Positions 1 to 56,298 of a DNA stretch of 56,298 nt are shown piece after piece (positions within the stretch are counted from its first letter, which is position 1; every line of letters starts with the position of its first letter). The translations under genes were made by a program, and so were the position numbers. Origin of the DNA: a virus. Lineage: Duplodnaviria > Caudoviricetes. The stretch lies in the IMG/VR virus record IMGVR_UViG_3300037861_000279, positions 1 through 56,298 of that record; one strand, 5' to 3'. The notes under the pieces are model-generated. The model saw only the letters and a program-made list of their open reading frames with translations, ran no database searches and was not told where the DNA came from.

Positions 1-144
1 CAATTCGGATCCGCACTACAGAAAATCTCTAGACTTCTCTACCATTTGCAAGAAGAGACTGGAATTGGCAGCAACCCTCGAAGCTATTCAGTTGAAACTC
101 GGGCGTGGTCTTACTCCAAAAGAAATCTCCGACACCAGGCTACA
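1..144. repeat. Terminal direct repeat copy 1 (circular assembly overlap)
   Basis: 1-144 equals 56155-56298 except C27 vs T56181; the reading frame continues across the junction. Confidence 0.97.
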
Positions 145-3100
145 CATGAAGGGCCTGCAGCAAGCCGGAGCTGACATCGAGGTATCATGTGGTGCCTGCT
201 ATGTTGACTCTGCCAGGATCAAAATCGGTCTTGCCGTGGAGAGATTCATTCGATTGTTTCCTGATTTCGCCCAACACAAAGAGGATCTCCTTTTTCAGCG
301 GGGGCTCGATAAGCTAAAGAGAGATAATCCGGATGTATTCACCAAGTTCACCAGCTACATTGCCCCGCAGAATATCAAGGCATCCGAGTCGAGGACAGAT
401 TATGACTCTGACATCCTCTTCTTGCCGCAAAAATTGGTTGACCTCTTTAACATCAGGTCCGGTTTGAGGTGGCAGTCATGGTCCGATTTCGAGGTTCCTC
501 ATCTTATCGATGCCATGCAGGCAGTCGTTGATCATGCCGCCAGGGGATTAAAGGCCCACACCTACACGAAGGTACCCCTTATGGCCGAATTGTTCGGCAG
601 AACAGGGATTATGATGAACATGTCCCTTATCCCGAAAGGCACTGGAGTTAATAAGGATGGATCTCTGGACTTTGATCCAGTCGAGGGGATGCCTTTTGAT
701 GTAGCCAAAGAACTGCGTAACAGGAAAGAGCACAGCAATACAGTGGGTACCATCGCCATCGGTGTTACTGATGAGAATATCCTGGCCATGATGGCAGATC
801 CTGATATCGACTTTATCATCCCATACCACAAGTCTGGCCTGCCAAAGATCATTGCAGACCGAGAGGGAATGGAAGCTTGGCAAGATTACACCGACTCACA
901 AAACAATAAAATCGGTGATAAAAAGCTGTTCGCCAAGTCTCGGTTCAAGGACATCGACGACTTCAGTGATTGGGACTCGACTCTTGCCTGGTGGGATGTC
1001 ACAAAGACGGGTGATGAGAATGCCAGTGTGTATCTAAAAACTGCCAGGGACGCTGGAGTAAAACCGAAATTTGCCAAGTTCAGCAATAAGCCTGGCTATT
1101 GGAAAACACTCATCGACCGGAAGATGTTCAACAACGATGGGGCCCAGATTATCCAGCAGGCACTTAAACCTGTCTACGACATGGAACTGGTGAACAAAAC
1201 CATCAGCGAGTACCAGGCCCCAAGGTCAGAGGCGGATCCACAGATTGTCGATGATATCGCCAATACAATGCCAAAGACTCTTTCCAATGAAGAGATAAAG
1301 ACAGGATCTCATAAGACCCAGTCACAGCACGACCTTCTTCTCTCGAAAAAGAAATCAGATCGCAGCAAGTCTGAAGAGAAAAGGATTGCCGGCATAAAAG
1401 ATAAGATCAAGAACGGTGTCAAGGCTGAGACTCTCAGATCTGATGGTGCCGCCAAAAAGGAATTGACCAAACCAGAGCAGGTTGGATTGGCTTACCTCTT
1501 CGACCTTCATAAGGCCCAGCAGATGTACCCTGGCGATTATGATCGGTTGATGAAGCTGTATACCAAGGCCGGAGGTCAGTTCTCTTTCTCCAGCCCTGCA
1601 GCCGGAAAAGCCGAGGAGGCCGAGCCAGCACAGGCAGATGGTGAGATCCAATATTCCATCCGGACAAAGCCAGCTCCGAAAGAGACCAAAAAGGCATACA
1701 AATTATTCAGGAAAGTAGGCGATGCAGCACACGCTCTATTCATAGGTCGTTCTATGCCCATGAAAGAAGGAACGTGGTATGACGCACAGTCTCCGCTCAT
1801 AAAAGACTTGGAAGGCCTTCCCGTTAACAAAACATATCTGATCGATAAAAAGGGCAATGCTGTTACCAAGAGATTTGCCAACAAGCAACAAGCTCCAAAC
1901 AAAAAGCTTATAAACGAGGCAGGCTTAGACGGAACAAGATACGTGCTGATCAAGGAGCACAAAAAGACAGGCGAGAGGCTATACCACAACTGGGGCATCA
2001 ATGGCAGTGGTGGAGTCTCCACCTTCGCCATGCGACCAGGCTGGCACTCTACCAACGTTCCGTCAGCTCGACATATAGGTGAGCAGGTAGACGGCAAAGT
2101 TGCCTACCGCAGAGAAGATGAACAATGGGCAGAGATAGAGGTCTCCGCCGATAAAGACTACAACGAGGAAGCAAACAGTCGAGCCTCAAAAGATATACCC
2201 GAGAATATCCCAGAAGACGGTTGGTACTCCTTCCAGACGAATACGAATGCCAACAAGGCACAGGATTGGTTTATCGGGGGAAGCATCAAGATCAACCGAT
2301 TTCTGTCCGACTTAGAAGCACAGGAGATTTCACTGGCTGACGGGTACGAAGCAGACCTGCCTAGAAAGAATGCTACAGAGGTCTCCGAGGCACCAGAAAC
2401 TTCGCTCAAACAACTCAAAGAAAAGCACAGTGGTTCAATCGGCACCATCCTGATCAGTGAGTCTGGCAACGACATTAAATTGGCTTCTATAATTGTACAG
2501 AAAGACAATCGTAAACAAGGCGTGGGTACTGCCTTCATGAACGATCTTGTCGCTCTAGCCGATTCTCAAGGTAAACGAATTTTGCTATCCCCAGGTCAGA
2601 AAGATGACAAGCACGGTACGTCCTCAAGATCGAGATTAGTCAAGTTTTATAAACGGTTCGGTTTTGTTGAGAATAAAGGAAGGAATAAAGACTTCCAAAT
2701 ATCCGAAGGAATGTTTCGTGATCCTGCCGACGATGTCTCCGAGTCTCCAGATACCTCCAAAGAAACAGGTCCGGTACAAGAGACCACACTCGGCGAGATC
2801 CTAAATAAAGCCCAGACCGAATCTGTTAACGAGGGAGTCCGGAAGTTGTCCAAGCTTCTCGGGCAATTCATCCCAGCAGAAAAACTAAAGATCAAAGTTG
2901 TAATCGATCCATCGGCGAGGTCTTCGAGCTTCAAGTCGAACAAAAACACAGGGTTTAAACAGATCACAATAAAGTCATCACTGAAGCATGGAGTTAACTT
3001 GCATGAGATCGTCCATGCAGTCACTGTGCTTGAAATGAATAGCAACCCCGTTCTCAGGCAGAAGGTCAAACACTTGATGCATCAAGTCAAAACGGACCTG

Positions 3101-6100
3101 ATTAAGAACGGTGTCATCTCCAAAGAATTACTCGATGCGGCTGCAGAGTCCAAAACAAGCAGAGAGTTTAAGAGCAACTTCAATGGCAAGATCGACAAGA
3201 CGGTGGGTGATATCGTCTATGCCTTCTTAAATGAGAAAGAGTTCCTGGCCCAGGCATTCTCTTCCAATAAATTCCAGAATCTTCTCAATGGTATTCAGGT
3301 CCGTGATAAGGGTGCTATGAAAAGTGCCTGGGACGCCTTCGTTGAGCTGGTAATGAAAGGTCTCGGAATAAACCCCAAACATGACAATGCCTTTTCTGAG
3401 GCGATCAAACTGGTTGCTGAACTGGCAGGGAAGGAGGCCACAACCGCAGACACAATCTCCTTGGAAAATATGTTCTCTCCAGATTGGTATTCAAGATTAC
3501 AGGGAACCCTGCAGGAAAAAGGAAGTACACAAACTGCAGACCAGTGGCTGAAGTCTATTTCCAGCTGGAAGAAAAAAGGCACCTTGCCTGCTCCGGTTCA
3601 AGAAGAACTTGAATGGTCAGGCCTCGAAGACTACCTGGCAGGACTTGGTAAGGAAAAGGTCTCCCGTGAGCAGCTGGCAAAATTTGTTGCTGACAATGGG
3701 GTTAAACTTGAGGAGGTTGTAAAGCAGGGAGGTAATCCAGACGGAGGTAATCCAGACGGAGACTGGGAGGATGCAACATCAGAGGAAATCCTCGAAGCGT
3801 ATATGGCCATGACCGGTCAGACCGAAGACGAGGTGCAGTGGGTTACCGAGGGAGACATGATAGTAGAACTAAACATGGAACTCGACCCATCAAATGATGC
3901 AGCAAAGTTTGTGGAATACCAACTCCCTGGCGGAAAGAATTATAAAGAGCTGTTGATCACCTTGCCCAAAAAAGAGAACACTCCCGAGAGAAAGAAGTTC
4001 GAATCCTTTATTGGCAAGATGGAGACGAAATATGGCGATGACTGGATAGACGAGATAACAAAAGCGGAAGAGGACGAGAGAAACATTCTCGCAAGGGACT
4101 CCGCAAATTCACAGGATCTCCAGTTCGATTCATCCCATTACGAAGAAGCCAATATCTTGGCTCATATCCGCTTCAACGAACGTTTGGACCCCGATGGTAA
4201 GAAGGTTCTTTTCCTTGAAGAGATCCAGAGTGACTGGCATCAGTCTGGAAAAAAGAAAGGCTATAAGGGAGACAGTGCTAAGTTCACCGAAAAATGGAAA
4301 GATCATGTTGAGAAGATAGAGCCTTACGTTAGTGCAAACAATGAGAACATAGCAGGTGAGGATATAGCGAATGTTGTCGGAGACCCCCTTGTCCTTGAAT
4401 CTATAGGAGTGCCTGAGGCAATAATAAACGAAGGCCTGGCGTTGGTTAAAGAGATGAATAGCGACTTGTCATCAGTGCCAAACGCACCATTCAAGAGCAC
4501 ACCGGCATGGACGATGTTGGCGATGAAACGGATGATACGCTATGCCACGGAGAACGGGTTTGACAAGGTTGCCTGGACTACTGGCGAGCAGCAGGCAGAA
4601 CGGTATGATCTGAGCAAGAAGATAAGCAGAGTTGTCTATGATCCAAACGATAAAACTCTTTTTGCCTATGACCTCGACAGCAAGCAGGTCATGAAAGAGC
4701 GCAATGTAGGAGAAGGTCAGATAGAGGATCACATTGGCAAGGAAGCTGCCAGGAGACTCACCTCAAAGGAAAACACCAATCTCAAGCATGAAAGCAAGGG
4801 AGGAGGAGTAAACTTCTATGAGATAGAAGGCGAAAATCTCAAGGTTGGCGGCGAAGGAATGAAGGCCTTCTATGACAAGATGCTCCCCTCCAACACGCAG
4901 AAATTCATTAAGCAGTTTGGTGGAAAGGTTGAGAATTTTCAGGTCGACGTCGGGTCTCAAGACTGGGTAAGTGGAAGCATGGTCATGGACTCAATGGGTA
5001 TTCCGGAAAAAGACCAGTCAGCCTATTGGGGAAACCTCGAGGCTGAAGAGCGTGATCAACTCCAAGACGACTACCGGAAAGAAATATCACATAGCAACCA
5101 GCAGGGGTTCTCAATAACTCCGGCCATGCAAGAGTCTGCAGGCATGCCTTTGTTCGCACCGAAAAGTTTAGAAGACGATGTGTCCGAAGCACCCCCAGGC
5201 GAAGACTCGATAGAGGGCATCATGTCCAACCTTCGTAAGACTGCCACAACCAAGGCAGATCTAGAGAAGGCTGGCATAGCAAAAGAACAAGAAATAATCG
5301 AACAATATCGGAAACTTGAGACACTTGCGAGAGATCCGCATTCTTCTATCGCAAGCAAGCAGGCGATGATCGCATCCTTCCTGAAAGTTCTTCCCGTGAA
5401 CGTCCGTGCAAAGGTCATCACTCCTTTGACTTTCATCAGCAGGTTTCTGGGAATTGGAACTCATACGAAGCGAATGGATGAGGCCCTTGCCCGTGCGGAA
5501 AAAGAACTTGTCAGTTACTTGAGTCGTGAGATAATTGCCGGTATTCAAAAGGGGATCACTCCCAAGAAACTGGCCAAAAACAGAATCAAGAAAGATACCA
5601 TCGGGCCTGCTGCAGCAAGAGATCTTCAGTTCATCAGGGACACTCTGAAAGAAGAAGATATCGAGGCGATTGCGGTACAGGTCGATGCTCAGATTCTAAG
5701 GAAAGAAGATGAACTCGAGGCGGCAACCGACAAGGAGGCCCTGGTAATCGAAGATGAATTGTCCGATCTCCGGTCTCACAGGAATATCATTGAGACATTT
5801 GGAGATCTCAAAACTCAGAACCTTGAGGATCTGTTGTTTGCCAAGGAGGCCCTGAACTCGATTGTCTCTGAGGGAAGAGCCCTGTGGAGAGCACAGCAGG
5901 AATCTTTCAAGGCAGCATTGGGACCAGTCGTTGCCAAAGTCCAACAGGACATTTCCGGCCAGGAAGATCCGACTGTTGAGTCAGCTGCAGAGGCCACCAA
6001 AAGAAGGGAGAAAGAGGACACAGTTAAGGGACGGGCGAAGAAGACTTGGAATGCAGTTGAGAACAGCATCCTGTCCTGGGAATTTTTGATGAACAAACTC

Positions 6101-8284
6101 TCTACTCTTGCCGGCGATAAAGTCCTGCAGTCATATACAACGAAGAAGATGTTATCAGTGGCCAAAAAAGCAACCGATGACGAGATCCTCTATAAGGATG
6201 AATCTGATACGACTATTCATTCAAAAGCTATGGAGATTTTCAACACCAAGAAGGATGCTGACCTGAATGAGCTTTTCATGGATCAGGAGATAAAGCAATC
6301 CGGAGAAGTCTTCGCATATGGCGAGATGGGGAAACAGCTTGGTGACTTCACCATGTCTCCCATGGAAGCTGCCTACATGTATGCCGTCCGGAAAAACCCC
6401 GACAGTATTCCGACATTCGAAGGCATGCACATGACCGACAAGACCTTCGATGAAATTGAGAAGTTTATCGGGCCGGAGCTGAAAGCGTGGGTCGACTATA
6501 ATGTCGATGAGTATCTGCAGGATTTCCACTACGATGTGAATCAGGTTTACCGGAAAGTTTTCGGAACCAATCTCTCTAAAACACCAGGGTATATCTCATG
6601 GTATCGAGATGTTCCCGGGAAGGTACAGGAAAAGGGTATAGCGGCGAGCCCTTCAGAGTCCGGAACTAAGGGAATGGCGAGGGGTGCATTCAAGGAAAGA
6701 GTCAAGAACACCAACCCCTACCGGATGATGAGCTTCAACGATGTGCTGATGAAGCATGTCGATGAGATGAACAACTTCCGTGCCTGGGCCATGCCTACCA
6801 AAGTTATAAACGGAGTGTTCAATAATCGACAGACACAACGATTGATAACTCAGCACCATGGGGCAAACCTGGCCAAGAATATTAAGCAATTCCAGACGGA
6901 CTTCACCAAGTCTCCGACAGAACTCCGTGGAGATCTGCCGTGGCTCGACCAGTTACGAGGCAACATCACAACGGCAATGACTGCCCTCAATCCTACAATC
7001 TTCCTGAAACAGTTGACCTCAATCCCAGCACTGGCAGAATCAATTCCAGCCAGTGCCTGGGCGAAGAACTCTGCCTTATTTTGGACAAATCCTCTGAAAG
7101 CCTGGAACATATTAAAAGATTCCAAAACCTGGGAAGGACGGAGACAAATGGGCATGGAGCGGGACATACGAACTGCCCAGGTCGTTTCCGGATCACAGGC
7201 TATTGCTAATGTCCGGAACCTGAAGAACAGAGCAATGTTTCTCGTAAAGTGGGGTGATGGTGCGGCTATTCTGGTGGGCGGATATCCTGTTTACAAATAT
7301 CATTTCGACAAAAATTTGAGTGAGATGGGCAAGGCTGCAGCTCACAAGTTTGCCCTTGGTAAGTTCGAAGAGGCCATGGACAGAACCCAGCAGTCTAGCG
7401 GCATAAAGGACCAGGGTAATATCCAGCGTTCCGGCAGCTATGCCAAGCTGTTCACCATGTTTATCACATCTCCAAAGCAATACACCTCCCAGATAACTGC
7501 AGCCATAAGGGGAATACACGCTAATCCAAAGGATGGGGATGCATACAAGAGACTGTTTATTTTTGGCGTACTCATGCCGTCCTTATTCAAAGCGACAGCT
7601 ACTGGCCTCCTTGGTATAATCGGTGGTGATGATGACGATAAAGAAGAGTTTGTCAGTGGCCAGATAAAAGCGATCTTGACCTCTCCTCTCAACGGGATCC
7701 CCATAGTTCGTGATCTCCAAAATGCTGTGTGGGAATCAGCTGTGGGAGAATGGTACGGTACCGATGTCGATTATTCTCCGGCCACTCAGGCCGGAAGTTC
7801 TTTGATGGGCGCCATTTATCATGGGGCAAAGTTGTTGTCCAGTGAAGAGATGACTCCCGAGAAGAAAGAGAAACATCAGAACTTAGCATTGAAAAATTTG
7901 TTTGAAACCGTTGGCTATCGTTTCGGTTTACCTGCCAATACCGTGCGGAAAATGGTTTTGGAAAACTGGGCTGATGTTGCCTCTGGAGAAACCGATTACC
8001 CAATCAGGAGGAGTCTCGGGTTTAGTCGTTATGCCATGGGCGAAAAAGCAAGTCGGTACACCAGAAACAAAACCAAGGTGGAAGATGCCACAAAGCGGAG
8101 AGAGGACAAAGAGCCGAGGGAAGGAGACGGTAATCTCTTAAAGCTCAATGGTTTTCTAAAGGACACAGAAACGAGAGTCAGAAGATTAAAAAAGCTCAAG
8201 GGCCTGGCAAAAACCAAAGAGAGCAAAGATGGCTATTCAGAGAAAATAGAAAAGGTTAGGTCACAATTTAATAATCGGTTCTAG
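2..8284 (+). CDS. Giant polyvalent virion/ejection protein, C-terminal part (continues from 52475 across the junction; whole protein 3987 aa)
   Basis: Frame is open from base 2 (NSDPHYRKSLDFSTICKKR), so the TTG at 65 is not the real start. Contains C-x46-CxxCY, an RPGWH domain, a GNAT (RKQGVGTAFM...FYKRFGF), a HEIVH zincin with EFLAQ, an EEIQSDWHQ domain and a long helical C-terminus. Last gene of the ejection-protein cluster. Confidence 0.9.
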   Translation, partial: NSDPHYRKSLDFSTICKKRLELAATLEAIQLKLGRGLTPKEISDTRLHMKGLQQAGADIEVSCGACYVDSARIKIGLAVERFIRLFPDFAQHKEDLLFQRGLDKLKRDNPDVFTKFTSYIAPQNIKASESRTDYDSDILFLPQKLVDLFNIRSGLRWQSWSDFEVPHLIDAMQAVVDHAARGLKAHTYTKVPLMAELFGRTGIMMNMSLIPKGTGVNKDGSLDFDPVEGMPFDVAKELRNRKEHSNTVGTIAIGVTDENILAMMADPDIDFIIPYHKSGLPKIIADREGMEAWQDYTDSQNNKIGDKKLFAKSRFKDIDDFSDWDSTLAWWDVTKTGDENASVYLKTARDAGVKPKFAKFSNKPGYWKTLIDRKMFNNDGAQIIQQALKPVYDMELVNKTISEYQAPRSEADPQIVDDIANTMPKTLSNEEIKTGSHKTQSQHDLLLSKKKSDRSKSEEKRIAGIKDKIKNGVKAETLRSDGAAKKELTKPEQVGLAYLFDLHKAQQMYPGDYDRLMKLYTKAGGQFSFSSPAAGKAEEAEPAQADGEIQYSIRTKPAPKETKKAYKLFRKVGDAAHALFIGRSMPMKEGTWYDAQSPLIKDLEGLPVNKTYLIDKKGNAVTKRFANKQQAPNKKLINEAGLDGTRYVLIKEHKKTGERLYHNWGINGSGGVSTFAMRPGWHSTNVPSARHIGEQVDGKVAYRREDEQWAEIEVSADKDYNEEANSRASKDIPENIPEDGWYSFQTNTNANKAQDWFIGGSIKINRFLSDLEAQEISLADGYEADLPRKNATEVSEAPETSLKQLKEKHSGSIGTILISESGNDIKLASIIVQKDNRKQGVGTAFMNDLVALADSQGKRILLSPGQKDDKHGTSSRSRLVKFYKRFGFVENKGRNKDFQISEGMFRDPADDVSESPDTSKETGPVQETTLGEILNKAQTESVNEGVRKLSKLLGQFIPAEKLKIKVVIDPSARSSSFKSNKNTGFKQITIKSSLKHGVNLHEIVHAVTVLEMNSNPVLRQKVKHLMHQVKTDLIKNGVISKELLDAAAESKTSREFKSNFNGKIDKTVGDIVYAFLNEKEFLAQAFSSNKFQNLLNGIQVRDKGAMKSAWDAFVELVMKGLGINPKHDNAFSEAIKLVAELAGKEATTADTISLENMFSPDWYSRLQGTLQEKGSTQTADQWLKSISSWKKKGTLPAPVQEELEWSGLEDYLAGLGKEKVSREQLAKFVADNGVKLEEVVKQGGNPDGGNPDGDWEDATSEEILEAYMAMTGQTEDEVQWVTEGDMIVELNMELDPSNDAAKFVEYQLPGGKNYKELLITLPKKENTPERKKFESFIGKMETKYGDDWIDEITKAEEDERNILARDSANSQDLQFDSSHYEEANILAHIRFNERLDPDGKKVLFLEEIQSDWHQSGKKKGYKGDSAKFTEKWKDHVEKIEPYVSANNENIAGEDIANVVGDPLVLESIGVPEAIINEGLALVKEMNSDLSSVPNAPFKSTPAWTMLAMKRMIRYATENGFDKVAWTTGEQQAERYDLSKKISRVVYDPNDKTLFAYDLDSKQVMKERNVGEGQIEDHIGKEAARRLTSKENTNLKHESKGGGVNFYEIEGENLKVGGEGMKAFYDKMLPSNTQKFIKQFGGKVENFQVDVGSQDWVSGSMVMDSMGIPEKDQSAYWGNLEAEERDQLQDDYRKEISHSNQQGFSITPAMQESAGMPLFAPKSLEDDVSEAPPGEDSIEGIMSNLRKTATTKADLEKAGIAKEQEIIEQYRKLETLARDPHSSIASKQAMIASFLKVLPVNVRAKVITPLTFISRFLGIGTHTKRMDEALARAEKELVSYLSREIIAGIQKGITPKKLAKNRIKKDTIGPAAARDLQFIRDTLKEEDIEAIAVQVDAQILRKEDELEAATDKEALVIEDELSDLRSHRNIIETFGDLKTQNLEDLLFAKEALNSIVSEGRALWRAQQESFKAALGPVVAKVQQDISGQEDPTVESAAEATKRREKEDTVKGRAKKTWNAVENSILSWEFLMNKLSTLAGDKVLQSYTTKKMLSVAKKATDDEILYKDESDTTIHSKAMEIFNTKKDADLNELFMDQEIKQSGEVFAYGEMGKQLGDFTMSPMEAAYMYAVRKNPDSIPTFEGMHMTDKTFDEIEKFIGPELKAWVDYNVDEYLQDFHYDVNQVYRKVFGTNLSKTPGYISWYRDVPGKVQEKGIAASPSESGTKGMARGAFKERVKNTNPYRMMSFNDVLMKHVDEMNNFRAWAMPTKVINGVFNNRQTQRLITQHHGANLAKNIKQFQTDFTKSPTELRGDLPWLDQLRGNITTAMTALNPTIFLKQLTSIPALAESIPASAWAKNSALFWTNPLKAWNILKDSKTWEGRRQMGMERDIRTAQVVSGSQAIANVRNLKNRAMFLVKWGDGAAILVGGYPVYKYHFDKNLSEMGKAAAHKFALGKFEEAMDRTQQSSGIKDQGNIQRSGSYAKLFTMFITSPKQYTSQITAAIRGIHANPKDGDAYKRLFIFGVLMPSLFKATATGLLGIIGGDDDDKEEFVSGQIKAILTSPLNGIPIVRDLQNAVWESAVGEWYGTDVDYSPATQAGSSLMGAIYHGAKLLSSEEMTPEKKEKHQNLALKNLFETVGYRFGLPANTVRKMVLENWADVASGETDYPIRRSLGFSRYAMGEKASRYTRNKTKVEDATKRREDKEPREGDGNLLKLNGFLKDTETRVRRLKKLKGLAKTKESKDGYSEKIEKVRSQFNNRF
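3728..3761 (+). repeat. 15-bp in-frame tandem duplication (GGNPD x2)
   Basis: GGAGGTAATCCAGAC twice, then GGAG. Confidence 0.9.
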
Positions 8285-24626: not shown

Positions 24627-25478
24627 CTACGCCTGACAACAATATGCGTCTTTAACTACATTCCTCGTCATTGCCGGCCTAGCCCATGCTCGTTGAAAAC
24701 GCCTCCACTCTTTGTCGGTATCCCCTTCTTTGTTTTTCCAGAGCATGGCCATAGGCATAAATCCAGCCTCCCATGCTTCAAGTAGCCTTTTCTTTGCTGC
24801 TGTGATGGTGTCTTGTGGCCATCCTATCAAGACATAGCACCGAAGATGGCGGCGAGTGAAGTCTGCATACCTCAGCTTTTCCCCGGCCCTTCTTAAATGC
24901 TCAAGATCGTCAGGAGTATCGTAGGCAAAAAACATCTGGTCTGGTCGCAAATTCCACAACATTGTAACATGCGTATGAGTGAGAACTTTGGCCTCCAAAC
25001 CGCCCGTTAACTGTGCTCTCTTTGGTTGTTTTTTCATCATCTTGAAAACTTCAAGAATGTGCTCAGTTGAACAGGCTAGAATGTTACTATCTAAAAGGTT
25101 CCAGCCCTCATGTATAGGCAATTCACGAATCCCCCCTTCACGCTTATGGACATCACAAAACCAGCAATTATTTGGGCAACCTCGCGATGTCATTAGATAC
25201 CCATGTTTTAAATACATTCCTGGGGTAAAATCTCCACCGTGATCCCCGCAAGCAGGCCCACCAATTTGCACCGGAGCTATACTTTTCCAATCAGTTGCAA
25301 GTCGTTCGGCTTTTGCCATGTCATAGGTAAAAGTGACGCTCACATGAACCTCATCAATGTCGGCGGTAAAGTCGGCCGGTGGAGGTCCAAAGAACGCAAG
25401 TTCGTCGTCGGGTGACGCTGTTGTTTTCCTGGGAAATACTCTTGCAATCCTCGTTATATCTTGCTCCCTTTTATGCAT
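24627..25478 (-). CDS. Radical SAM protein
   Basis: TSRGCPNNCWFC (CxxxCxxC), LLDSNIL, GGLE, FFAYD, CYVLIG. Confidence 0.88.
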   Translation of the reverse strand: MHKREQDITRIARVFPRKTTASPDDELAFFGPPPADFTADIDEVHVSVTFTYDMAKAERLATDWKSIAPVQIGGPACGDHGGDFTPGMYLKHGYLMTSRGCPNNCWFCDVHKREGGIRELPIHEGWNLLDSNILACSTEHILEVFKMMKKQPKRAQLTGGLEAKVLTHTHVTMLWNLRPDQMFFAYDTPDDLEHLRRAGEKLRYADFTRRHLRCYVLIGWPQDTITAAKKRLLEAWEAGFMPMAMLWKNKEGDTDKEWRRFQRAWARPAMTRNVVKDAYCCQA

Positions 25479-26655: not shown

Positions 26656-27003
26656 TCATGCTCCTTGTGATCTTTCGATCATATCGATGAGAGACATCTT
26701 ACCTTCGAAGGAAAGTGTCTCTATTTTTTCGAGGATTTCCACTCTTACCCCATTAGTCCGCAAATTATCACGAAGGAAGAAGACCTCCAGGGCTGGTTTG
26801 TTTCCAGTGAAAACGTGTCCCTTCATTGATTTGAAGATTTCCACGAATTCTTCTTCCTGAAACGCAGGCATGTTCCTTCTGACCATCTCTTGGTAACGAT
26901 CAGCAAAGCTGTTGATAGCACCAGAAACGTTAACAGTTCCTCGAACATCGAGCATCGCATTGAGACCGCTCTGCAGGTAGATGTGCGGTTTTCTTTGATT
27001 CAT
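26656..27003 (-). CDS. Putative ribbon-helix-helix DNA-binding protein
   Basis: N-terminal PHIYL strand then helices (VSGAINSFADRY). Confidence 0.45.
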   Translation of the reverse strand: MNQRKPHIYLQSGLNAMLDVRGTVNVSGAINSFADRYQEMVRRNMPAFQEEEFVEIFKSMKGHVFTGNKPALEVFFLRDNLRTNGVRVEILEKIETLSFEGKMSLIDMIERSQGA

Positions 27004-27710
27004 GTCCTCGCCTTTGGGAACTGCCTTACCTGAAGGTTCTCAGGAATAGCCTCCCTGTCTGATTTTTTGCTGCCCGACATCTGCTTCATGAAAAAAGGTA
27101 TGGCAGCATCATAACACTGTTCCATTAAGTCTTCTGCCCAGTATGGTTTCATCTCCCTGGCATTTGGACCTGATTCTCCGCCGCAAATTACCCAGTCTAT
27201 TCTTGACAATTGGCAGGCCAATCTCAAGGAAATAATCCCCAGCATTGGTTCAACGCTTGCAAACCTGACAGGGACATTAAACATTGTGAGAATTTCTAAA
27301 CGTTCAAGGGCCTGCTCGTGGTTTTCACAGGTCACTCCGAGCCAGACGTTTTTCAAGGAACCGAGATCCATTGGCACCCTGGCAAGCATGTTTTCTGGCC
27401 GTTTGGTTAAAATTTGGAAAGTGAGATGGGGATTGTTCCTGATTACAGCCCAGGCCTCATCTCTCCAGGCATCGGCCTCCTCAATAAAAAAGTCGGACCA
27501 GCTGCAGACAAAAACCATCGCAGGTTCTATCCAGTGATTTGGTTTATTGAAGGTTGCAATGCTGGAACGAACAACCGTCTCGGGATCCTTGCCATATCTC
27601 TTTTTGTCTCTTTCCATGTAGCAGTTGTCACAACCTGGGGAGACCTTATGGCAACCCTGCCATGGGTTCCACGTATGATCTGTCCATGCAATTTCACTAT
27701 TCTTTGCCAT
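27000..27710 (-). CDS. Phage Gp37Gp68 (DUF5131) radical-SAM-like protein
   Basis: IAWTDHTWNPWQGCHKVSPGCDNCY, SWSDFF, QILTKRP, NVWLGVT, SVEPML, WVICGGESG, FFMKQ. Confidence 0.93.
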   Translation of the reverse strand: MAKNSEIAWTDHTWNPWQGCHKVSPGCDNCYMERDKKRYGKDPETVVRSSIATFNKPNHWIEPAMVFVCSWSDFFIEEADAWRDEAWAVIRNNPHLTFQILTKRPENMLARVPMDLGSLKNVWLGVTCENHEQALERLEILTMFNVPVRFASVEPMLGIISLRLACQLSRIDWVICGGESGPNAREMKPYWAEDLMEQCYDAAIPFFMKQMSGSKKSDREAIPENLQVRQFPKART

Positions 27711-29082: not shown

Positions 29083-30270
29083 TTACAACATAGCTTCGTC
29101 ATAAATTTTTTCCCAATTTGCATTGAGCCCTATCCTATCACCAAAAGCATGGAAGCAAGCCTCCACATCCCCCTTGCTCGGGAGGTATCGACCATCTGTT
29201 GTTATCTGACCACCTTCATTCAACCTGATGCTCAATTCCTCTCTATCCACTGGCATACACTCAAAAGGGAAAACCGTAACGTCACCAGCTGCCGTCTTGT
29301 ATTTTATCCTCGGTACTCCGTAATAGGATGCGCCAGGACTATTGATAACGAGGGAGGCTTCTCCAATTTCACCAGCTATTAGTTTTATCTCTGTGCCTGG
29401 TGACTTAGTGATCATGAAGTGTGCAGTATCACAATCTTTGAATGCCTCCAGTAGCCTGGCTATTTTCTCTGTTGAGCAATGAGTCAGAAACTCGTCTGGC
29501 ATCGTTTGGTAGTGCATGTCAAAAATCTTTTCGACTATATGATCCCATGTTGCCACGTTTTGAAAACCCCTCGTCATAGGGTTAAAACTTGGCATTGAGT
29601 CAATATCTTCAGCTGTTATAGATTCGTTATAGAATGTCCTGCTGGTGATATTCTGCTCAACCTCGATAGATCCAGATAGGATGCCAGATATTTTGTTGTA
29701 TATTTCAACATTTTCCTGCCACACGATGTCCGGATCAAAGGAACTGGTAAATTTAACTTTTCCTAATATCGGTACCGGATATTCGACGGTCTCTCCCTGA
29801 CTCATATTCTCTACTATCCCCAGGATCGGAATGTCCTTTGCCTGAAAGAAAAGCGAGGTTCTATTAACATCAGTCACACTCAACTTGTTTGGCTGAGTGA
29901 CCAGCAGCACACCGGAGATATCTATAGCTGAAATAAGATTAGTGTGGATGTCCGTAATAGATGGTGGTGTGTCTATAAGCAGGTAGTCTGGTTTGAATTT
30001 CCAGACCATCCTCTTTGATTCTGACAGGTACTTCTTTACCATGCTGTTTTGGATATAGATCAAGCCAGCAGACTCATATCCAATAGATCTAACGACTAAG
30101 TTTTCCGGCAAATCATCCTGTTCGAATATTACATGCATCGAAGGTGTATTTACATCAGCATCAAGTATGAACACCTTGTGGCCGGATGCGAGCAACGACC
30201 TTGCTATATTTGCTGTCGTGGTAGTTTTACCGACTCCGCCTTTACCCGAATATACGATTATGCTCTTCAT
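29083..30270 (-). CDS. Mrp/NBP35-like P-loop ATPase (MinD/ParA superfamily) with extra C-terminal domain
   Basis: SGKGGVGKTT, LDADVNTPS, IDTPP, VTQP and the Mrp signature GIVENMS; no following CxxC. Confidence 0.85.
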   Translation of the reverse strand: MKSIIVYSGKGGVGKTTTTANIARSLLASGHKVFILDADVNTPSMHVIFEQDDLPENLVVRSIGYESAGLIYIQNSMVKKYLSESKRMVWKFKPDYLLIDTPPSITDIHTNLISAIDISGVLLVTQPNKLSVTDVNRTSLFFQAKDIPILGIVENMSQGETVEYPVPILGKVKFTSSFDPDIVWQENVEIYNKISGILSGSIEVEQNITSRTFYNESITAEDIDSMPSFNPMTRGFQNVATWDHIVEKIFDMHYQTMPDEFLTHCSTEKIARLLEAFKDCDTAHFMITKSPGTEIKLIAGEIGEASLVINSPGASYYGVPRIKYKTAAGDVTVFPFECMPVDREELSIRLNEGGQITTDGRYLPSKGDVEACFHAFGDRIGLNANWEKIYDEAML

Positions 30271-38573: not shown

Positions 38574-39038
38574 ATGGATATGTATATTGGAACAAAGGTT
38601 TTGAGTGGAGAAGCAATGACACTTGGCGAATACAACCTTTTTCGTGGTTGGACTATCCGAGCTGCTGATGATCCAAGCAAGAAAGGTTTCCTTGTTGTTT
38701 ATGAAGACGGGTATATGTCGTGGTCACCAGCAGAGGCATTTAAGGCTTATAGGCGGATCGATGCCATGACCCTTGGGATTGCCATTGAATGTTCGAAGGC
38801 CGGAAAGAAAGTTGCCCGTAAAGGATGGAATGCAAACGGTTTGTTTATCGTTTATCAAAAAGGATATCCTGAAGGGATCACATGCAACAAGCAAACGGCA
38901 GAGGCCTGGGGGATGAACGAAGGTGACCTGTTCAAGTGTGAACCTTACCTGCAGATCAATACGGTCCATGGATCTCATGCGATGTGGGTTCCCTCCATCG
39001 GCGATGCTCTGGCCGAAGACTGGTACATTGTGGAATGA
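38574..39038 (+). CDS. DUF2829/Tad2-like anti-defence sponge fused to an N-terminal YIGTK...SWSP domain
   Basis: AIECSKAGKKVARKGWN...PYLQI...WVPSIGDALAEDW is the DUF2829 pattern. Confidence 0.75.
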   Translation: MDMYIGTKVLSGEAMTLGEYNLFRGWTIRAADDPSKKGFLVVYEDGYMSWSPAEAFKAYRRIDAMTLGIAIECSKAGKKVARKGWNANGLFIVYQKGYPEGITCNKQTAEAWGMNEGDLFKCEPYLQINTVHGSHAMWVPSIGDALAEDWYIVE

Positions 39039-52474: not shown

Positions 52475-55400
52475 ATGGCACTTAAACAAGGATTCACCGA
52501 TGGTTGGGCTACCGATGAAGATGTCGAGACTGCTGAGTTAAGCAAACAGACTGCTGATGTCAGCAAACAGACCGATGATACTCTTTCTTCCGACTTCTCT
52601 GACGGGTGGTCTACAGCTGAACCTGTTGCAGAACCTGAACTGGAGACCGGAACAAAGCCCGAGGATTATAGTAGATCTCTGGCCGTTGGTTTAAACAGAT
52701 TTGGTCAAACCATTGGCCGAGCTATCGATGTCGTCGGTAATGTTGATCCGACAGGTGTCTTGGACAAGGTCGGGCAGGATGTGGAATCCTTCTATAAGAA
52801 AGAGGCAGAAGAGGACCAGGCAGCACTGTCTCCCGCAATGCAAGCGGCACAGGAGTTGAAGTACACCACCGATGTCGAGGAGTCATGGAAAGAGGCGCCA
52901 CTCAAAAACTTCATGAGTATTTTCCAAGGCGATGCCTGGAAGAGTCCCGAGAAGGTGGCTGGCAGTTTGCTGCAGTCAGCACCTAGTACCATCGTCGGTA
53001 TGGGAACCGGTATGGGTATCACTCAGGGCTTGATTAAAGAGAGCGCCAAGTTGGTGGCAGACAAGCTGATCAAGAAGGGCATCTCTAGTGGCCTGGCTGG
53101 TGTAATCGGTGGTTTCATTGGAGAGGGTGGAACTGCATCTATCGAGACTGGAAAAGATGTGTACGACTTGGTCATCACCGCACCATTGGAGGTTATCTCC
53201 AAAACTCCTGAATATCAAAAAGCATACGAAGCACTCTCCGGTGAGAAATTAACTGAGAAAGAAAAAGAAAAGCAAGCCAGAGAACTTGTAGCTGACCATG
53301 CCGCCATGAAATCGATGGCAAAGGTGTTTGCTGCGACAGGAATGCTCGGGAGTGTCTCCGGCCATTACATGGGTAAACTCATTGGTGGTGAGGCAACCGG
53401 AGGTGTAGCCAAGAAGGTATTGATCGGTGCCGGAACTGAGGGACTGCAGGAAACACCACAGAGCGGGTTCGAAATAGTCGAGCAGAACTTACAAAAGAAA
53501 AAATTCGTCAACCCAGAGCAAGACATCTGGGAGGGAGTCAAGGAGGGATCTGTCGAGGGTGGTGTTCAAGGAATGGCCATGGGCGGAGGTATGGCAAGTA
53601 TCCCTGCCGTTCTAAGCAGAGGTGGAGTTCAGGAAGAAAAGCGCATCGACAACTCTGCCCTCACAACCCTCAAGGAGGGTGGCCACATCATCTCAGATGA
53701 CTCTGCAGCCGGCGTGGACATCCTCGGGGGTTTCGGATTCGTTAATCAGCCTCTTGATACGGTTATAGAATCCCTGGCCGATGCCCCGATAGAGGTCTTG
53801 ATGGAAAGACTCACTGACGATGTTCTTTCCTCAGAGCATTTCCAGAACATTATTGGCGAGCTGGAAGAATCTGGCGTGAATGTAGAAGACGATGCCGAAG
53901 TCAAGCAGGCCATAATCGAAAGGGTTATTCCGACAATGCAGATGAGCTTGCAGGTTGGTCTCGCAACCTCCAACATGACAACAGTCCAAAAGAGACAGGT
54001 GATCTCAGACCTGAATAACGCAGAGGATCCCAGTGCCAGGGTTAAGGCCGTTGAACAAATAGAGAAAGCGATTGAGAATAAAAAAGTTGCTCAGTCTTGG
54101 GCGAATACTGCTCTTGATAAGATTGATAAAGGGGCAGAGATTGTCCTCGATCAAAGCTTCATCGACTTCGCAGCACAAGACGAGGGAACCCTATCAAGCT
54201 TACGAGAGGAAAGTGTCGGGAATGCCAATGCCGAATATGCCGGAGAGCTGCAGCGTAAACTGAACAACTTGGAGGCACACAAGAATCCTTCCGATAGTGT
54301 CAAGTCAAACATCATACAGATCAAACACCAGATCGGTCAGCTGGAGGAAGGTCTCAAGCAGAACAGGTTCAATATTCTCAAAGCAAAAGCAGAGGGAACC
54401 CCAGCTGAATCTATTACTGTTGATGGTGTTCAGCAAAAGGTTGATGGTATCGAACCGGAGCTTTTAACCTCTGAAGAGCAAATAGAATATGTCGCTTTAA
54501 AGAAAGAGTTCGGCCAGGAAGCTGCAAAGGCACCAGAGAATCAAATCCCAGCCGGAGAAAGTAAAACTGCCGAGCAGGAATCGACTGACAAAGCAGTTAA
54601 GAAAAAAGAGGACTCCTCATCACCAGGGAGTGCCGAGAGTGATCTTCTCTTGGATATGGCAGAAGAGGCCGAGGCTGTTCAGGAAGGTGAGAACACAAAA
54701 AAACGAAAGGCAGACTTCGAAAAGCTATCTGGAGTTGCCTCCGACAAGGCGAAGGTACCTCTTGCTCCAGCTAAAGGTGCAGTTGTCGATGCTGAACTTA
54801 CAAAAGGGGATCCTGTTTCCACCTCCGAGACAACTCCTCGACAACGCAAGGCCCAGAAGAGATTGGATGAGCTTGCTGAAAAAGCAAAGTCATATACTTT
54901 GACTCCGATGGATATGGTTGAGCGTGACGATCTCAATGATGAACTGAAGTCCGGTGTGAAGTATTCCATCAAGGTTCAGGAAGACAGGACCATAAGCAAG
55001 GAAACCACCTTTAACGAGAACCTCTTTGTGTATCTGGATCCCATTAACTCTTCGCAAATGGAAGAGAGGATGGGTAGAGAAAAACTACTGAAACGACATT
55101 CACACGACAATATAGAACACACTTCATCACAATTTGGTGGCTGGAGGGTTTTGTATAAAAACGACAACGGTGACATCGTAGGCTCAATACAAGGTGTGAA
55201 AAATCCGAACAGTGGAGAGGTTATTGTCTCCAATGCCTATGTTCGTCCAGACTTTAGAAGGAAGGGTATCGGAAAAACCCTGATGGAAGAGGCTGAAAAA
55301 AGGTTCAAGAACATAACTCTCAGCGGGGATAATTCAATAACGGGTGCGGCACTGGTGGATAGTGTTGTCAATAAAGAGCAGTATTCCGTGGAGGACTCCA

Positions 55401-56298
55401 CCGGATCGCCAGTAACAATCGAGTCAGTGCGGCAGGCCTTCCCTGGACAGACGGTAAACGAAGGTGCCGATGGTAGCTTCATAGTGCACACCACAGGGGG
55501 GATGGTTGTTACGGTCCATCCGAATGCTGACATCGAAGTTGATGCGACTACTGCATCTGCCGCATACCAGAAGACGATCAAGCCTGGCACCAAAGCAGCA
55601 GGCTCTTTCCAGATGATAGGGGGGAAAGCTGTTATCCAGTTGTCCAAAGAAGCTGGCACCAATCCTCTCAAGCACGAAATATATCATGCCGCCGAGGAAA
55701 TGGTACTCACCCAGGCAGAGATTGAGGCTATTCGTAAGAAACACGGGAACTCTGAGCAACGAGCAGAAGCATACAACAACTGGGATGGCGAGACATCTGC
55801 CCCTCTTTTCCAGAAGATCAAAGAATTTTTCCAACAAGTTGCCAAGGCTCTGGGCCTGAAGGTCGACACCAGTGCTGCAGATTCTCGGAAGGCATTTGGT
55901 AAGATCGAGTCTGGCGAAGTTTGGGCAAGAGACCCCAACGACCCCGATGGTTCTATCTCTGTAGACTATTCTATCCGGTCCTTGCCTGGTACCGAGAAAA
56001 GACTGATCGCCTGGAATGCCGAGCACAAGATGGTCCCTGCTGCCAAAATGAAACAGTACATCAAAGATCTGCAGTCAGTTTCTGCGATGATTCTCGGTGG
56101 ACCAGCATCACTGGATTACATTCCGACCAAAGACATCTACAAGGCACTCAAGGACAATTCGGATCCGCACTACAGAAAATTTCTAGACTTCTCTACCATT
56201 TGCAAGAAGAGACTGGAATTGGCAGCAACCCTCGAAGCTATTCAGTTGAAACTCGGGCGTGGTCTTACTCCAAAAGAAATCTCCGACACCAGGCTACA
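52475..56298 (+). CDS. Giant polyvalent virion/ejection protein, N-terminal part (absent from ORF track; joins 2-8284)
   Basis: ATG directly after the upstream TAA; hand translation shows no stop to the window end; 56156-52475 is divisible by 3, so it joins the frame of base 2. Contains Gly-rich hydrophobic segments, EGLQETPQ, a GNAT (YVRPDFRRKGIGKTLM) and a HEIYH zincin. Confidence 0.92.
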   Translation, partial: MALKQGFTDGWATDEDVETAELSKQTADVSKQTDDTLSSDFSDGWSTAEPVAEPELETGTKPEDYSRSLAVGLNRFGQTIGRAIDVVGNVDPTGVLDKVGQDVESFYKKEAEEDQAALSPAMQAAQELKYTTDVEESWKEAPLKNFMSIFQGDAWKSPEKVAGSLLQSAPSTIVGMGTGMGITQGLIKESAKLVADKLIKKGISSGLAGVIGGFIGEGGTASIETGKDVYDLVITAPLEVISKTPEYQKAYEALSGEKLTEKEKEKQARELVADHAAMKSMAKVFAATGMLGSVSGHYMGKLIGGEATGGVAKKVLIGAGTEGLQETPQSGFEIVEQNLQKKKFVNPEQDIWEGVKEGSVEGGVQGMAMGGGMASIPAVLSRGGVQEEKRIDNSALTTLKEGGHIISDDSAAGVDILGGFGFVNQPLDTVIESLADAPIEVLMERLTDDVLSSEHFQNIIGELEESGVNVEDDAEVKQAIIERVIPTMQMSLQVGLATSNMTTVQKRQVISDLNNAEDPSARVKAVEQIEKAIENKKVAQSWANTALDKIDKGAEIVLDQSFIDFAAQDEGTLSSLREESVGNANAEYAGELQRKLNNLEAHKNPSDSVKSNIIQIKHQIGQLEEGLKQNRFNILKAKAEGTPAESITVDGVQQKVDGIEPELLTSEEQIEYVALKKEFGQEAAKAPENQIPAGESKTAEQESTDKAVKKKEDSSSPGSAESDLLLDMAEEAEAVQEGENTKKRKADFEKLSGVASDKAKVPLAPAKGAVVDAELTKGDPVSTSETTPRQRKAQKRLDELAEKAKSYTLTPMDMVERDDLNDELKSGVKYSIKVQEDRTISKETTFNENLFVYLDPINSSQMEERMGREKLLKRHSHDNIEHTSSQFGGWRVLYKNDNGDIVGSIQGVKNPNSGEVIVSNAYVRPDFRRKGIGKTLMEEAEKRFKNITLSGDNSITGAALVDSVVNKEQYSVEDSTGSPVTIESVRQAFPGQTVNEGADGSFIVHTTGGMVVTVHPNADIEVDATTASAAYQKTIKPGTKAAGSFQMIGGKAVIQLSKEAGTNPLKHEIYHAAEEMVLTQAEIEAIRKKHGNSEQRAEAYNNWDGETSAPLFQKIKEFFQQVAKALGLKVDTSAADSRKAFGKIESGEVWARDPNDPDGSISVDYSIRSLPGTEKRLIAWNAEHKMVPAAKMKQYIKDLQSVSAMILGGPASLDYIPTKDIYKALKDNSDPHYRKFLDFSTICKKRLELAATLEAIQLKLGRGLTPKEISDTRL
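56155..56298. repeat. Terminal direct repeat copy 2
   Basis: Identical to 1-144 except T56181 vs C27. Confidence 0.97.

Follow-up and report, generated by a model that had tools for sequence, protein, structure and literature searches.

A cysteine-bearing module of about 490 amino acids (aa) lies within a giant protein encoded by virus record IMGVR_UViG_3300037861_000279, a stretch of 56,298 nucleotides (nt) that was analysed whole and is called the window here. A sequence-only reading of this DNA had proposed that the module is a radical S-adenosylmethionine (SAM)-like domain carried by a virion protein that is injected at infection. We describe the open reading frame (ORF) that encodes it, the conservation of its cysteine triad and its relation to the protein families DUF5131, GP88 and DUF7227.

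The giant ORF and its gene context

The two ends of the record overlap by 144 nt with a single mismatch (Table 1), so the genome is circular or terminally redundant and was cut within the giant ORF; the ORF that reaches the right-hand end thus continues from the left-hand one, giving a single protein of 3,987 aa. At the mismatch, a C/T difference between the two copies of the overlap changes a Ser/Phe codon of the giant ORF and may be a population polymorphism or an assembly error. The module covers about residues 1165-1657 of this protein and straddles the junction of the record, from about 55967 to about 1216.

The N-terminal part of the protein holds a region resembling the N-terminal part of N4-type virion RNA polymerase (residues 152-393 weakly match phrog_2206 'virion RNA polymerase', E 2.8e-7). 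Two GNAT domains, the first at residues 889-946 (PF00583, E 2.8e-9), two HExxH motifs, one of them at residue 1067, and a single hydrophobic segment near the C-terminus complete the recognizable parts. The ORF lies 3' of the terminase, portal and SU10-type adaptor genes, with other unassigned ORFs intervening, and 5' of tail-fibre genes with Laminin_G_3 and tail-tip domains. The protein is very large and multidomain, carries effector-type domains and is encoded in a late/virion gene block, as expected of polyvalent proteins; within a genome that resembles those of podoviruses, it has the appearance of a polyvalent phage protein of virion type. The PHROG match, the gene position and the polyvalent domains of homologues agree with the virion-type protein that the sequence-only reading had described.

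Iyer, Burroughs, Anand, de Souza and Aravind argued in 2017 that phage-type polyvalent proteins are packed and delivered with the DNA (PMC5512222). The present protein resembles those described there in its giant multidomain build, its late/virion gene block and its effector-type domains (GNAT here), and its HExxH motifs recall the MPTase proposed for self-processing of polyvalent proteins. It differs in the module, which lies outside all Pfam families reported for its homologues; the main text of PMC5512222 contains none of the terms 'cysteine', 'radical', 'Fe-S', 'iron' or 'TIM barrel'.

Table 1. Positions of the giant ORF, the parts of its module and the other genes discussed, in window coordinates. 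Residue numbers such as C63 and S159, here and in the text, count in the module frame (2..8284).
Feature	Position	Strand	Remarks
Giant ORF, N-terminal part	52475..56296	+	Residues 1-1274 of the 3,987-aa protein; from the ORF list and translation
Giant ORF, continuation	2..8284	+	Residues 1228-3987; Cys-triad module, linker, unnamed module, second GNAT, second HExxH, C-terminal part
Terminal overlap of record	1..144	.	Matches 56155-56298 except at position 27
N-terminal extension of module	55967..56154	+	About 63 aa, from YSIR to the conserved NSDPHY; kept in close homologues
Module core	2..1300	+	Conservation stops near residue 405 of the frame, about nt 1216 (profile of 110 sequences)
First Cys, residue 1243	47..49	+	Within conserved DF[ST]TxCxKR; in 257/257 homologues
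CGACY	188..202	+	Cys 1290 and 1293 plus aromatic residue (Y; F in distant relatives); in 257/257 homologues
RWQSWSDFE	467..493	+	S159, S161, D162 invariant; pairs with DUF5131 S70, S72, D73, F74
YTK	563..571	+	Y188, T189, K190 invariant; pairs with DUF5131 T102, K103 and with DUF7227 YTYTH
NMSLIPKG	617..640	+	S208 invariant; pairs with DUF7227 INMS
IDFIIPYHKSGL	806..841	+	I273, P274, H276, S278, G279 invariant; pairs with DUF5131 IDWVIcGGESG in most runs
Lys/Glu-rich linker after module	1301..1651	+	Poorly conserved; conservation falls to nothing
Third YSI[RK] motif	1652..1663	+	Start of the following module; the others are at 54962-54973 and 55967-55978
Stand-alone DUF5131 gene	27003..27710	-	PF07505, E 1.8e-70
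283-aa ORF with CPNNCWFC	24630..25478	-	In the early region
395-aa ORF with Mrp/NUBPL-type domain	29086..30270	-	
ORF with Tad2-like domain	38574..39035	+	Directly upstream of the portal gene

Conservation and distribution of the cysteine triad

The three cysteines of the module are spaced C-x46-CxxCY. They are kept in all 110 distinct homologues, in all 23 viral loci, down to 30% identity, and in every one of the 257 rows of a larger alignment; the five loci whose tblastn match had begun downstream retain them as well (5/5), as do 10 of 11 bacterial-assembly loci, the eleventh (L135) being unreadable, with stops in frame. Across the 110 sequences, more than 60 columns of the module are at least 95% conserved, and these are mostly polar or charged and stand at the ends of hydrophobic stretches. 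The other motifs named in the sequence-only reading, GLRWQSWSDF (461-490, + strand), HTYTKVP (557-577, + strand) and MMNMSL (611-628, + strand), are where it had placed them and in the order it gave, in frame 2 of the + strand, and the conservation that it had asked of the three cysteines was borne out. The invariant triad is almost certainly a metal or cluster site, to judge by this conservation.

A fourth cysteine column is found in the alignment, occupied by Cys in 229 of the 257 rows and otherwise by A, L or V (Ala in the window). Because Cys alternates there with A, L or V, this position would be a buried residue and not a ligand; in one version of the template it aligns with column 199 of DUF5131, which is 93% Cys.

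Cysteine is otherwise all but missing from the giant protein, whose 3,987 residues include none beyond the triad. The other 59 ORFs of the window hold 173 cysteines in 12,713 aa (1.36%) and its structural genes 0.75%, a frequency at which three or fewer cysteines in the giant protein would be expected with a probability of 5e-10. The same holds in 248 long homologues, where cysteine makes up 0.10% of residues outside the module versus 0.92% inside it; 61 of them have no cysteine outside the module, and 16 have exactly three in total. Such scarcity points to selection against stray thiols, as would suit a protein that leaves the cell for a time or has to unfold on its way out of the capsid; on this view the module would travel cluster-free, with the cluster loaded in the host.

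The sequence-only reading had also bounded the domain by YSIR motifs at 55964 and 1649. Both motifs are present, each one codon further on than these positions (55967-55978 and 1652-1663), which mark the preceding D and Q. As bounds they are general only in part: of 255 homologues, no more than 69 have a strict YS[ILV]-type motif ahead of the module. In closer homologues YS[IL][RK] marks the module start, about 63-69 residues before NSDPHY, and the three YSI[KR] copies in the window each open a module, directly behind a Pro-rich or acidic linker. The motif is enriched about 2.3-fold in homologous giant proteins (191 seen versus 84.8 expected; n=248). From its placement, YSI[RK] would be a module-start or linker signature, possibly a processing site.

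The family is large. A word-indexed search returned 730 proteins of 1,518-4,830 aa at E <=0.001, and a profile search of 1.84 billion representatives returned 2,541 clusters (50% identity) at E <=0.001, 2,057 of them at E <=1e-30. The best 150 of the 2,541 matches all belong to the same family, range from 681 to 4,825 aa and are almost all giant phage proteins. When free-standing forms were sought, only 19 proteins came up, 204-1089 aa in length; many are encoded on contigs just a few kb long, and none is labelled GP88 or DUF5131. Homologues join the module to a shifting set of domains (ART-PolyVal, RadC, methyltransferases, PBECR3, PARP, LPD38, LPD22, LPD3, MuF_C and C5 DNA methylase), with ART-PolyVal directly following it in 3 of the 13 homologues scanned; none of the Pfam families in the scanned homologues covers the module itself.

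All 12 matches in one-per-species bacterial assemblies fall in Clostridia-type or Bacteroidales-type bins, labelled Clostridia, Eubacteriales, Clostridiales, Faecousia, Ructibacterium, Ruminiclostridium, Bacteroidales, Bacteroidaceae and Tidjanibacter, and most lie on contigs of about 28-72 kb that resemble binned phage genomes. These matches fit the anaerobic host hinted at in the sequence-only reading and are compatible with an oxygen-sensitive cofactor. A tblastn search with the module found no match among 50,697 isolated-phage records and 72,556 plasmids, and a viral scan with the GP88 alignment recovered the same closest 80 loci and added nothing.

Comparison with DUF5131, GP88 and DUF7227

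The window carries a stand-alone DUF5131 gene whose product reads CDNCY, then SWSDFF, then LTKRP, and which also matches TIGR04471 'radical SAM mobile pair protein A' (E 3.2e-16, under the model's cut-off). DUF5131 is given as a radical-SAM subgroup, Megacluster-5-2, in PMC9477430. We compared the module with this family by hhalign, using a module profile of 93 sequences below 70% identity and two DUF5131 profiles, one of 36 sequences and a more diverse one of 54 from bacterial genomes. The 36-sequence profile scored 30.0 (P 0.003, probability 10%), a value reached by none of 60 column shuffles (mean 16.5, maximum 27.4), with the reversed template at 11.3; the 54-sequence profile scored 24.7 (P 0.018). 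For calibration, DUF5131 was aligned to GP88 in this same shallow set-up, which uses no secondary structure, and scored 27.9 (P 0.0028), so that a related pair scores at the level seen between the module and DUF5131. Against DUF7227, represented by only 5 sequences, the module scored 26.0 (P 0.01; range 0.003-0.01), in register on KAxTYT...INMS.

The module profile was also cut into four non-overlapping segments, each aligned alone to three DUF5131 templates. Residues 59-69 fell on DUF5131 23-33 (CxxCY; P 0.008-0.04), residues 155-196 on 66-109 (SWSDF..TK; P 0.0005-0.0035) and residues 264-302 on 166-200 (ID.VI..SG; P 0.07-0.12), while residues 339-360 fell on 190-211 with 2 of the 3 templates, not significantly. 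The first three segments are colinear, with a Fisher P of 1.2-2.3e-4 that none of 40 shuffled templates reached. In extended alignments, ten residue pairs are common to the three templates (C63:C27, C66:C30, Y67:Y31, S159:S70, S161:S72, D162:D73, T189:T102, K190:K103, I273:I175 and G279:G181); every one of these columns is invariant in DUF5131 and holds the identical residue in the module, which thus shares the colinear core CxxCY, SWSDF, LTK, I.VI.GGESG. Of the likeness to this genome's own DUF5131 claimed in the sequence-only reading, the colinear order stands, together with a weak profile-profile match above shuffled controls; the first cysteine is not at the DUF5131 position.

Language-model comparison also favoured this neighbourhood. 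In an ESM Atlas feature search, GP88 made up 25 of the 30 nearest clusters (0.93, with 193 of 256 features shared), DUF7227 came next at 0.91 and DUF5131 stood at rank 22 (0.76), in keeping with the Gp88-type kinship proposed from sequence. Gene 88 of mycobacteriophage L5, which we confirmed as GP88 (PF17338, E 1.4e-56; it also matches DUF7227 weakly), reads C-x6-C-x3-CY, HWDGDFF and YTR. In the bacterial genomes searched, the Pfam GP88 model matches DUF5131 genes at seven shared places (G138:C4, G122:C25, G243:C36, G285:C1, G296:C67, G042:C14 and G270:C1) at E 2e-5 to 4e-4, sequence-level evidence that GP88 and DUF5131 are related and form one superfamily. In HMMER cross-scoring, GP88 and DUF5131 ORFs outrank decoys (Mann-Whitney P 5e-20 and 7e-6), a ranking given little weight because the sequences lack independence and GP88 aligns out of register.

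Like the module, DUF5131 has three invariant cysteines ending in CxxCY, the order SWSDF, xTK, I..I...SG (29 residues from D to T there, 27 in the module) and a semi-conserved Cys in the helix before a G.P.F motif. The module is about twice the size, at some 490 aa versus about 240; it has an additional C-terminal region and is interrupted by inserts behind CxxCY and NMSL, and among the matches listed it is seen only fused in giant proteins, whereas DUF5131 stands alone. Three DUF5131 variants of 345-384 aa (L188, L189 and L191, from G164, G211 and G142) have about 46 extra residues inserted immediately behind the Cys motif, so the DUF5131 family tolerates large inserts where the module also has one. 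DUF7227 (PF23872) has CxxCY, KAYTYTH and INMS, in register with KAHTYTK and MNMS of the module. GP88 and DUF7227 differ from the module in carrying a C-terminal CxxCxxC and in being free-standing early-type phage genes of 200-370 aa. With canonical radical-SAM proteins (PF04055) the module would share a three-Cys site and a series of conserved polar motifs, each following a hydrophobic stretch, an arrangement that a beta/alpha barrel would be expected to show. SWSDFE, NMSL and GTIAIGVTDE stand, by eye, where SAM-binding motifs such as GGE, the ribose motif and GxIxGxxE would be.

Three further genes of the window deserve mention. The 283-aa radical-SAM-type ORF with the canonical CPNNCWFC motif, a different protein from the module and unrelated to it, matches PF04055 weakly (E 5.8e-4) and no NCBIfam equivalog. 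The first ~160 residues of the 395-aa ORF match the Mrp/NUBPL 'iron-transfer P-loop NTPase' family (PF10609, E 2.4e-33); its product, encoded near the DUF5131 and radical-SAM ORFs, may be a phage-encoded iron-sulfur (Fe-S) cluster carrier. The ORF upstream of the portal gene has a Tad2-like (Thoeris anti-defence 2) domain (PF11195, E 8.1e-21).

A radical-SAM-like reading, its rivals and its meaning

On this evidence we regard it as about evenly balanced whether the module, as part of a polyprotein delivered by the virion, is a divergent Fe-S enzyme of radical-SAM-like type. The module is probably, if not certainly, related to the DUF5131/GP88/DUF7227 group, as a remote member that has grown much larger. 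It would probably keep the CxxC[YF] end of the motif of that group and have lost the proximal first cysteine, whose role the invariant Cys in DF[ST]TxCxKR, 46 residues upstream, may have taken over. If the homology holds, the likeliest chemistry of the module is that of a [4Fe-4S] cluster and SAM.

Several results weigh against this reading. Placement in a radical-SAM family, as proposed from sequence, found no support in the HMM libraries: the module and 23 relatives gave no relevant match in Pfam, PHROGs or NCBIfam, the 23 members scanned gave no match to PF04055 at E up to 10, and the module has no HMM-level match to Radical_SAM, GP88, DUF7227 or DUF5131 (PF07505, Pfam gathering cut-off 28.9 bits). 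Sequence and profile searches of the PDB with the module returned chance matches only. Cross-scores in HMMER do not exceed 3.7 bits, or 2.4 bits between module and DUF5131 HMMs, and hhalign probabilities for the module never rise above about 20%. Two of 40 shuffles gave a Fisher P below 0.01, so the hhalign P-values are somewhat optimistic; the register of the third segment shifts with the hhalign option -M 50, and the top hhalign alignment of the module with GP88 was out of register and was discounted as spurious. The Atlas recognition value of 2020 lies below the tool's line of 2300, which by the tool's own text makes it weak evidence. In spacing, the first Cys of DUF5131 lies 6 residues before CxxC, whereas that of the module lies 46 upstream, and the module has neither the canonical CxxxCxxC nor a recognizable GGE motif. 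Among five related viral records, three of them at least 90% complete, none has DUF5131 or an Mrp/ParA-type carrier, so neither is a general partner of the module. In the literature searched we found no paper on DUF5131, GP88 or DUF7227 and no tested activity for any of them. Finally, an oxygen-labile cluster in the particle and passage through the tail channel would be awkward for a holo-enzyme.

The PDB candidates themselves, a StAR-related protein (E 1.8) and MICAL3 (E 0.45), were at chance level, and the DUF5131 profile likewise found no relative in the PDB. No description of the module, nor of any polyvalent or virion protein with a domain of radical-SAM type, was found in the literature searched. 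Stretched cluster loops do occur among radical-SAM enzymes, QueE with CX14CX2C being one member, and to our knowledge a 46-residue insert would be far longer than any other.

The main rival, which we think rather unlikely, is that the triad and a conserved His, Asp or Glu form a zinc or other metal site in a fold unrelated to radical SAM, for example that of a hydrolase, nuclease or transferase, with the likeness to DUF5131 arising by convergence or chance. Radical-SAM proteins do not show the spacing C-x46-CxxC; extra ligands could come from H167 and H276, both invariant, or from the many acidic residues that are also invariant; a zinc site would, by established chemistry, outlast an Fe-S cluster in the particle; and the silence of the HMM libraries on radical-SAM families and the low hhalign probabilities fit a separate origin. 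Chance, however, would hardly produce ten colinear invariant pairs that stand out from shuffle controls, nor does it account for nearest language-model families that are all GP88, DUF7227 or DUF5131, or for a set of exactly three invariant cysteines with an aromatic residue behind it, which DUF5131 and GP88 also have.

A second alternative is that the module is a true DUF5131/GP88 relative whose Fe-S cluster takes no part in SAM radical chemistry and has a structural role, senses redox state or binds nucleic acid, in the way of the clusters of Fe-S DNA repair enzymes and primases. We consider this quite improbable: DUF5131 is curated within the radical-SAM superfamily in PMC9477430, and the DUF5131 of the window matches a radical-SAM mobile pair protein. 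Three-Cys sites with an open fourth iron are, from established knowledge, typical of SAM binding. It nevertheless draws on the invariant basic residues K18, R19, R72, K126, R131, R156, K190, R239 and K368, which suit nucleic-acid binding, on a GGE-type SAM motif that is not recognizable by eye, and on a literature search that found no demonstrated SAM-dependent activity for DUF5131 or GP88. A non-enzymatic module, forming a structural or ejection part of an internal virion protein with its cysteines as a metal staple or disulfide, seems very unlikely. Its embedding in giant proteins, against only 19 shorter forms, is what a structural part would show, yet the strongly conserved polar and charged columns at the ends of hydrophobic stretches form an active-site pattern, and the module changes position within the polyproteins, beside shuffled effector domains.

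If the module is a radical-SAM-like enzyme, Cys 1243, 1290 and 1293 would hold three irons of a [4Fe-4S] cluster and the fourth iron would bind SAM, while the strand-end motifs SWSDFE, YTK, NMSL, GTIAIG and IPYHxSG would line the active site of a beta/alpha barrel. Given the polyvalent-like nature of the host protein, the module would travel inside the particle, probably cluster-free, and enter the cell together with the DNA. There it would acquire its cluster and act early, most plausibly on nucleic acid, either repairing or modifying the genome that has just entered or doing so to a nucleic acid or nucleotide of the host. Direct reversal of DNA damage, as by spore photoproduct lyase (of a subgroup adjoining DUF5131 on RadicalSAM.org), is one possibility by analogy. 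Taken whole, the picture is tentative and on balance doubtful: a radical-SAM-type enzyme would serve as an injected effector, packed cluster-free in an otherwise cysteine-free giant polyprotein, loaded with [4Fe-4S] by an anaerobic host and then active, by radical chemistry, on the entering genome or on a nucleic acid or nucleotide of the host in the first moments of infection, its cluster loop having the longest insert known for the superfamily (46 residues) and its first ligand shifted onto an N-terminal helix.

Polyvalent virion proteins are seen as the carriers of a first-strike toolkit of the phage, which has so far been described as one of hydrolases, transferases and nucleic-acid binders. 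With its 2,541 clusters at 50% identity, the module is among the commonest parts of polyvalent proteins in uncultured, anaerobe-linked phages, and it has no family name or structure in the libraries searched and no paper that we found. The near-absence of cysteine in these giant proteins is a separate clue to how they are packed and ejected. A zinc site would still define a large unannotated enzyme family. If the module is instead a radical enzyme with an Fe-S cluster, the range of injected phage effectors would extend to radical chemistry, and DUF5131, GP88 and DUF7227 would gain a context that hints at their function, namely action at DNA entry.

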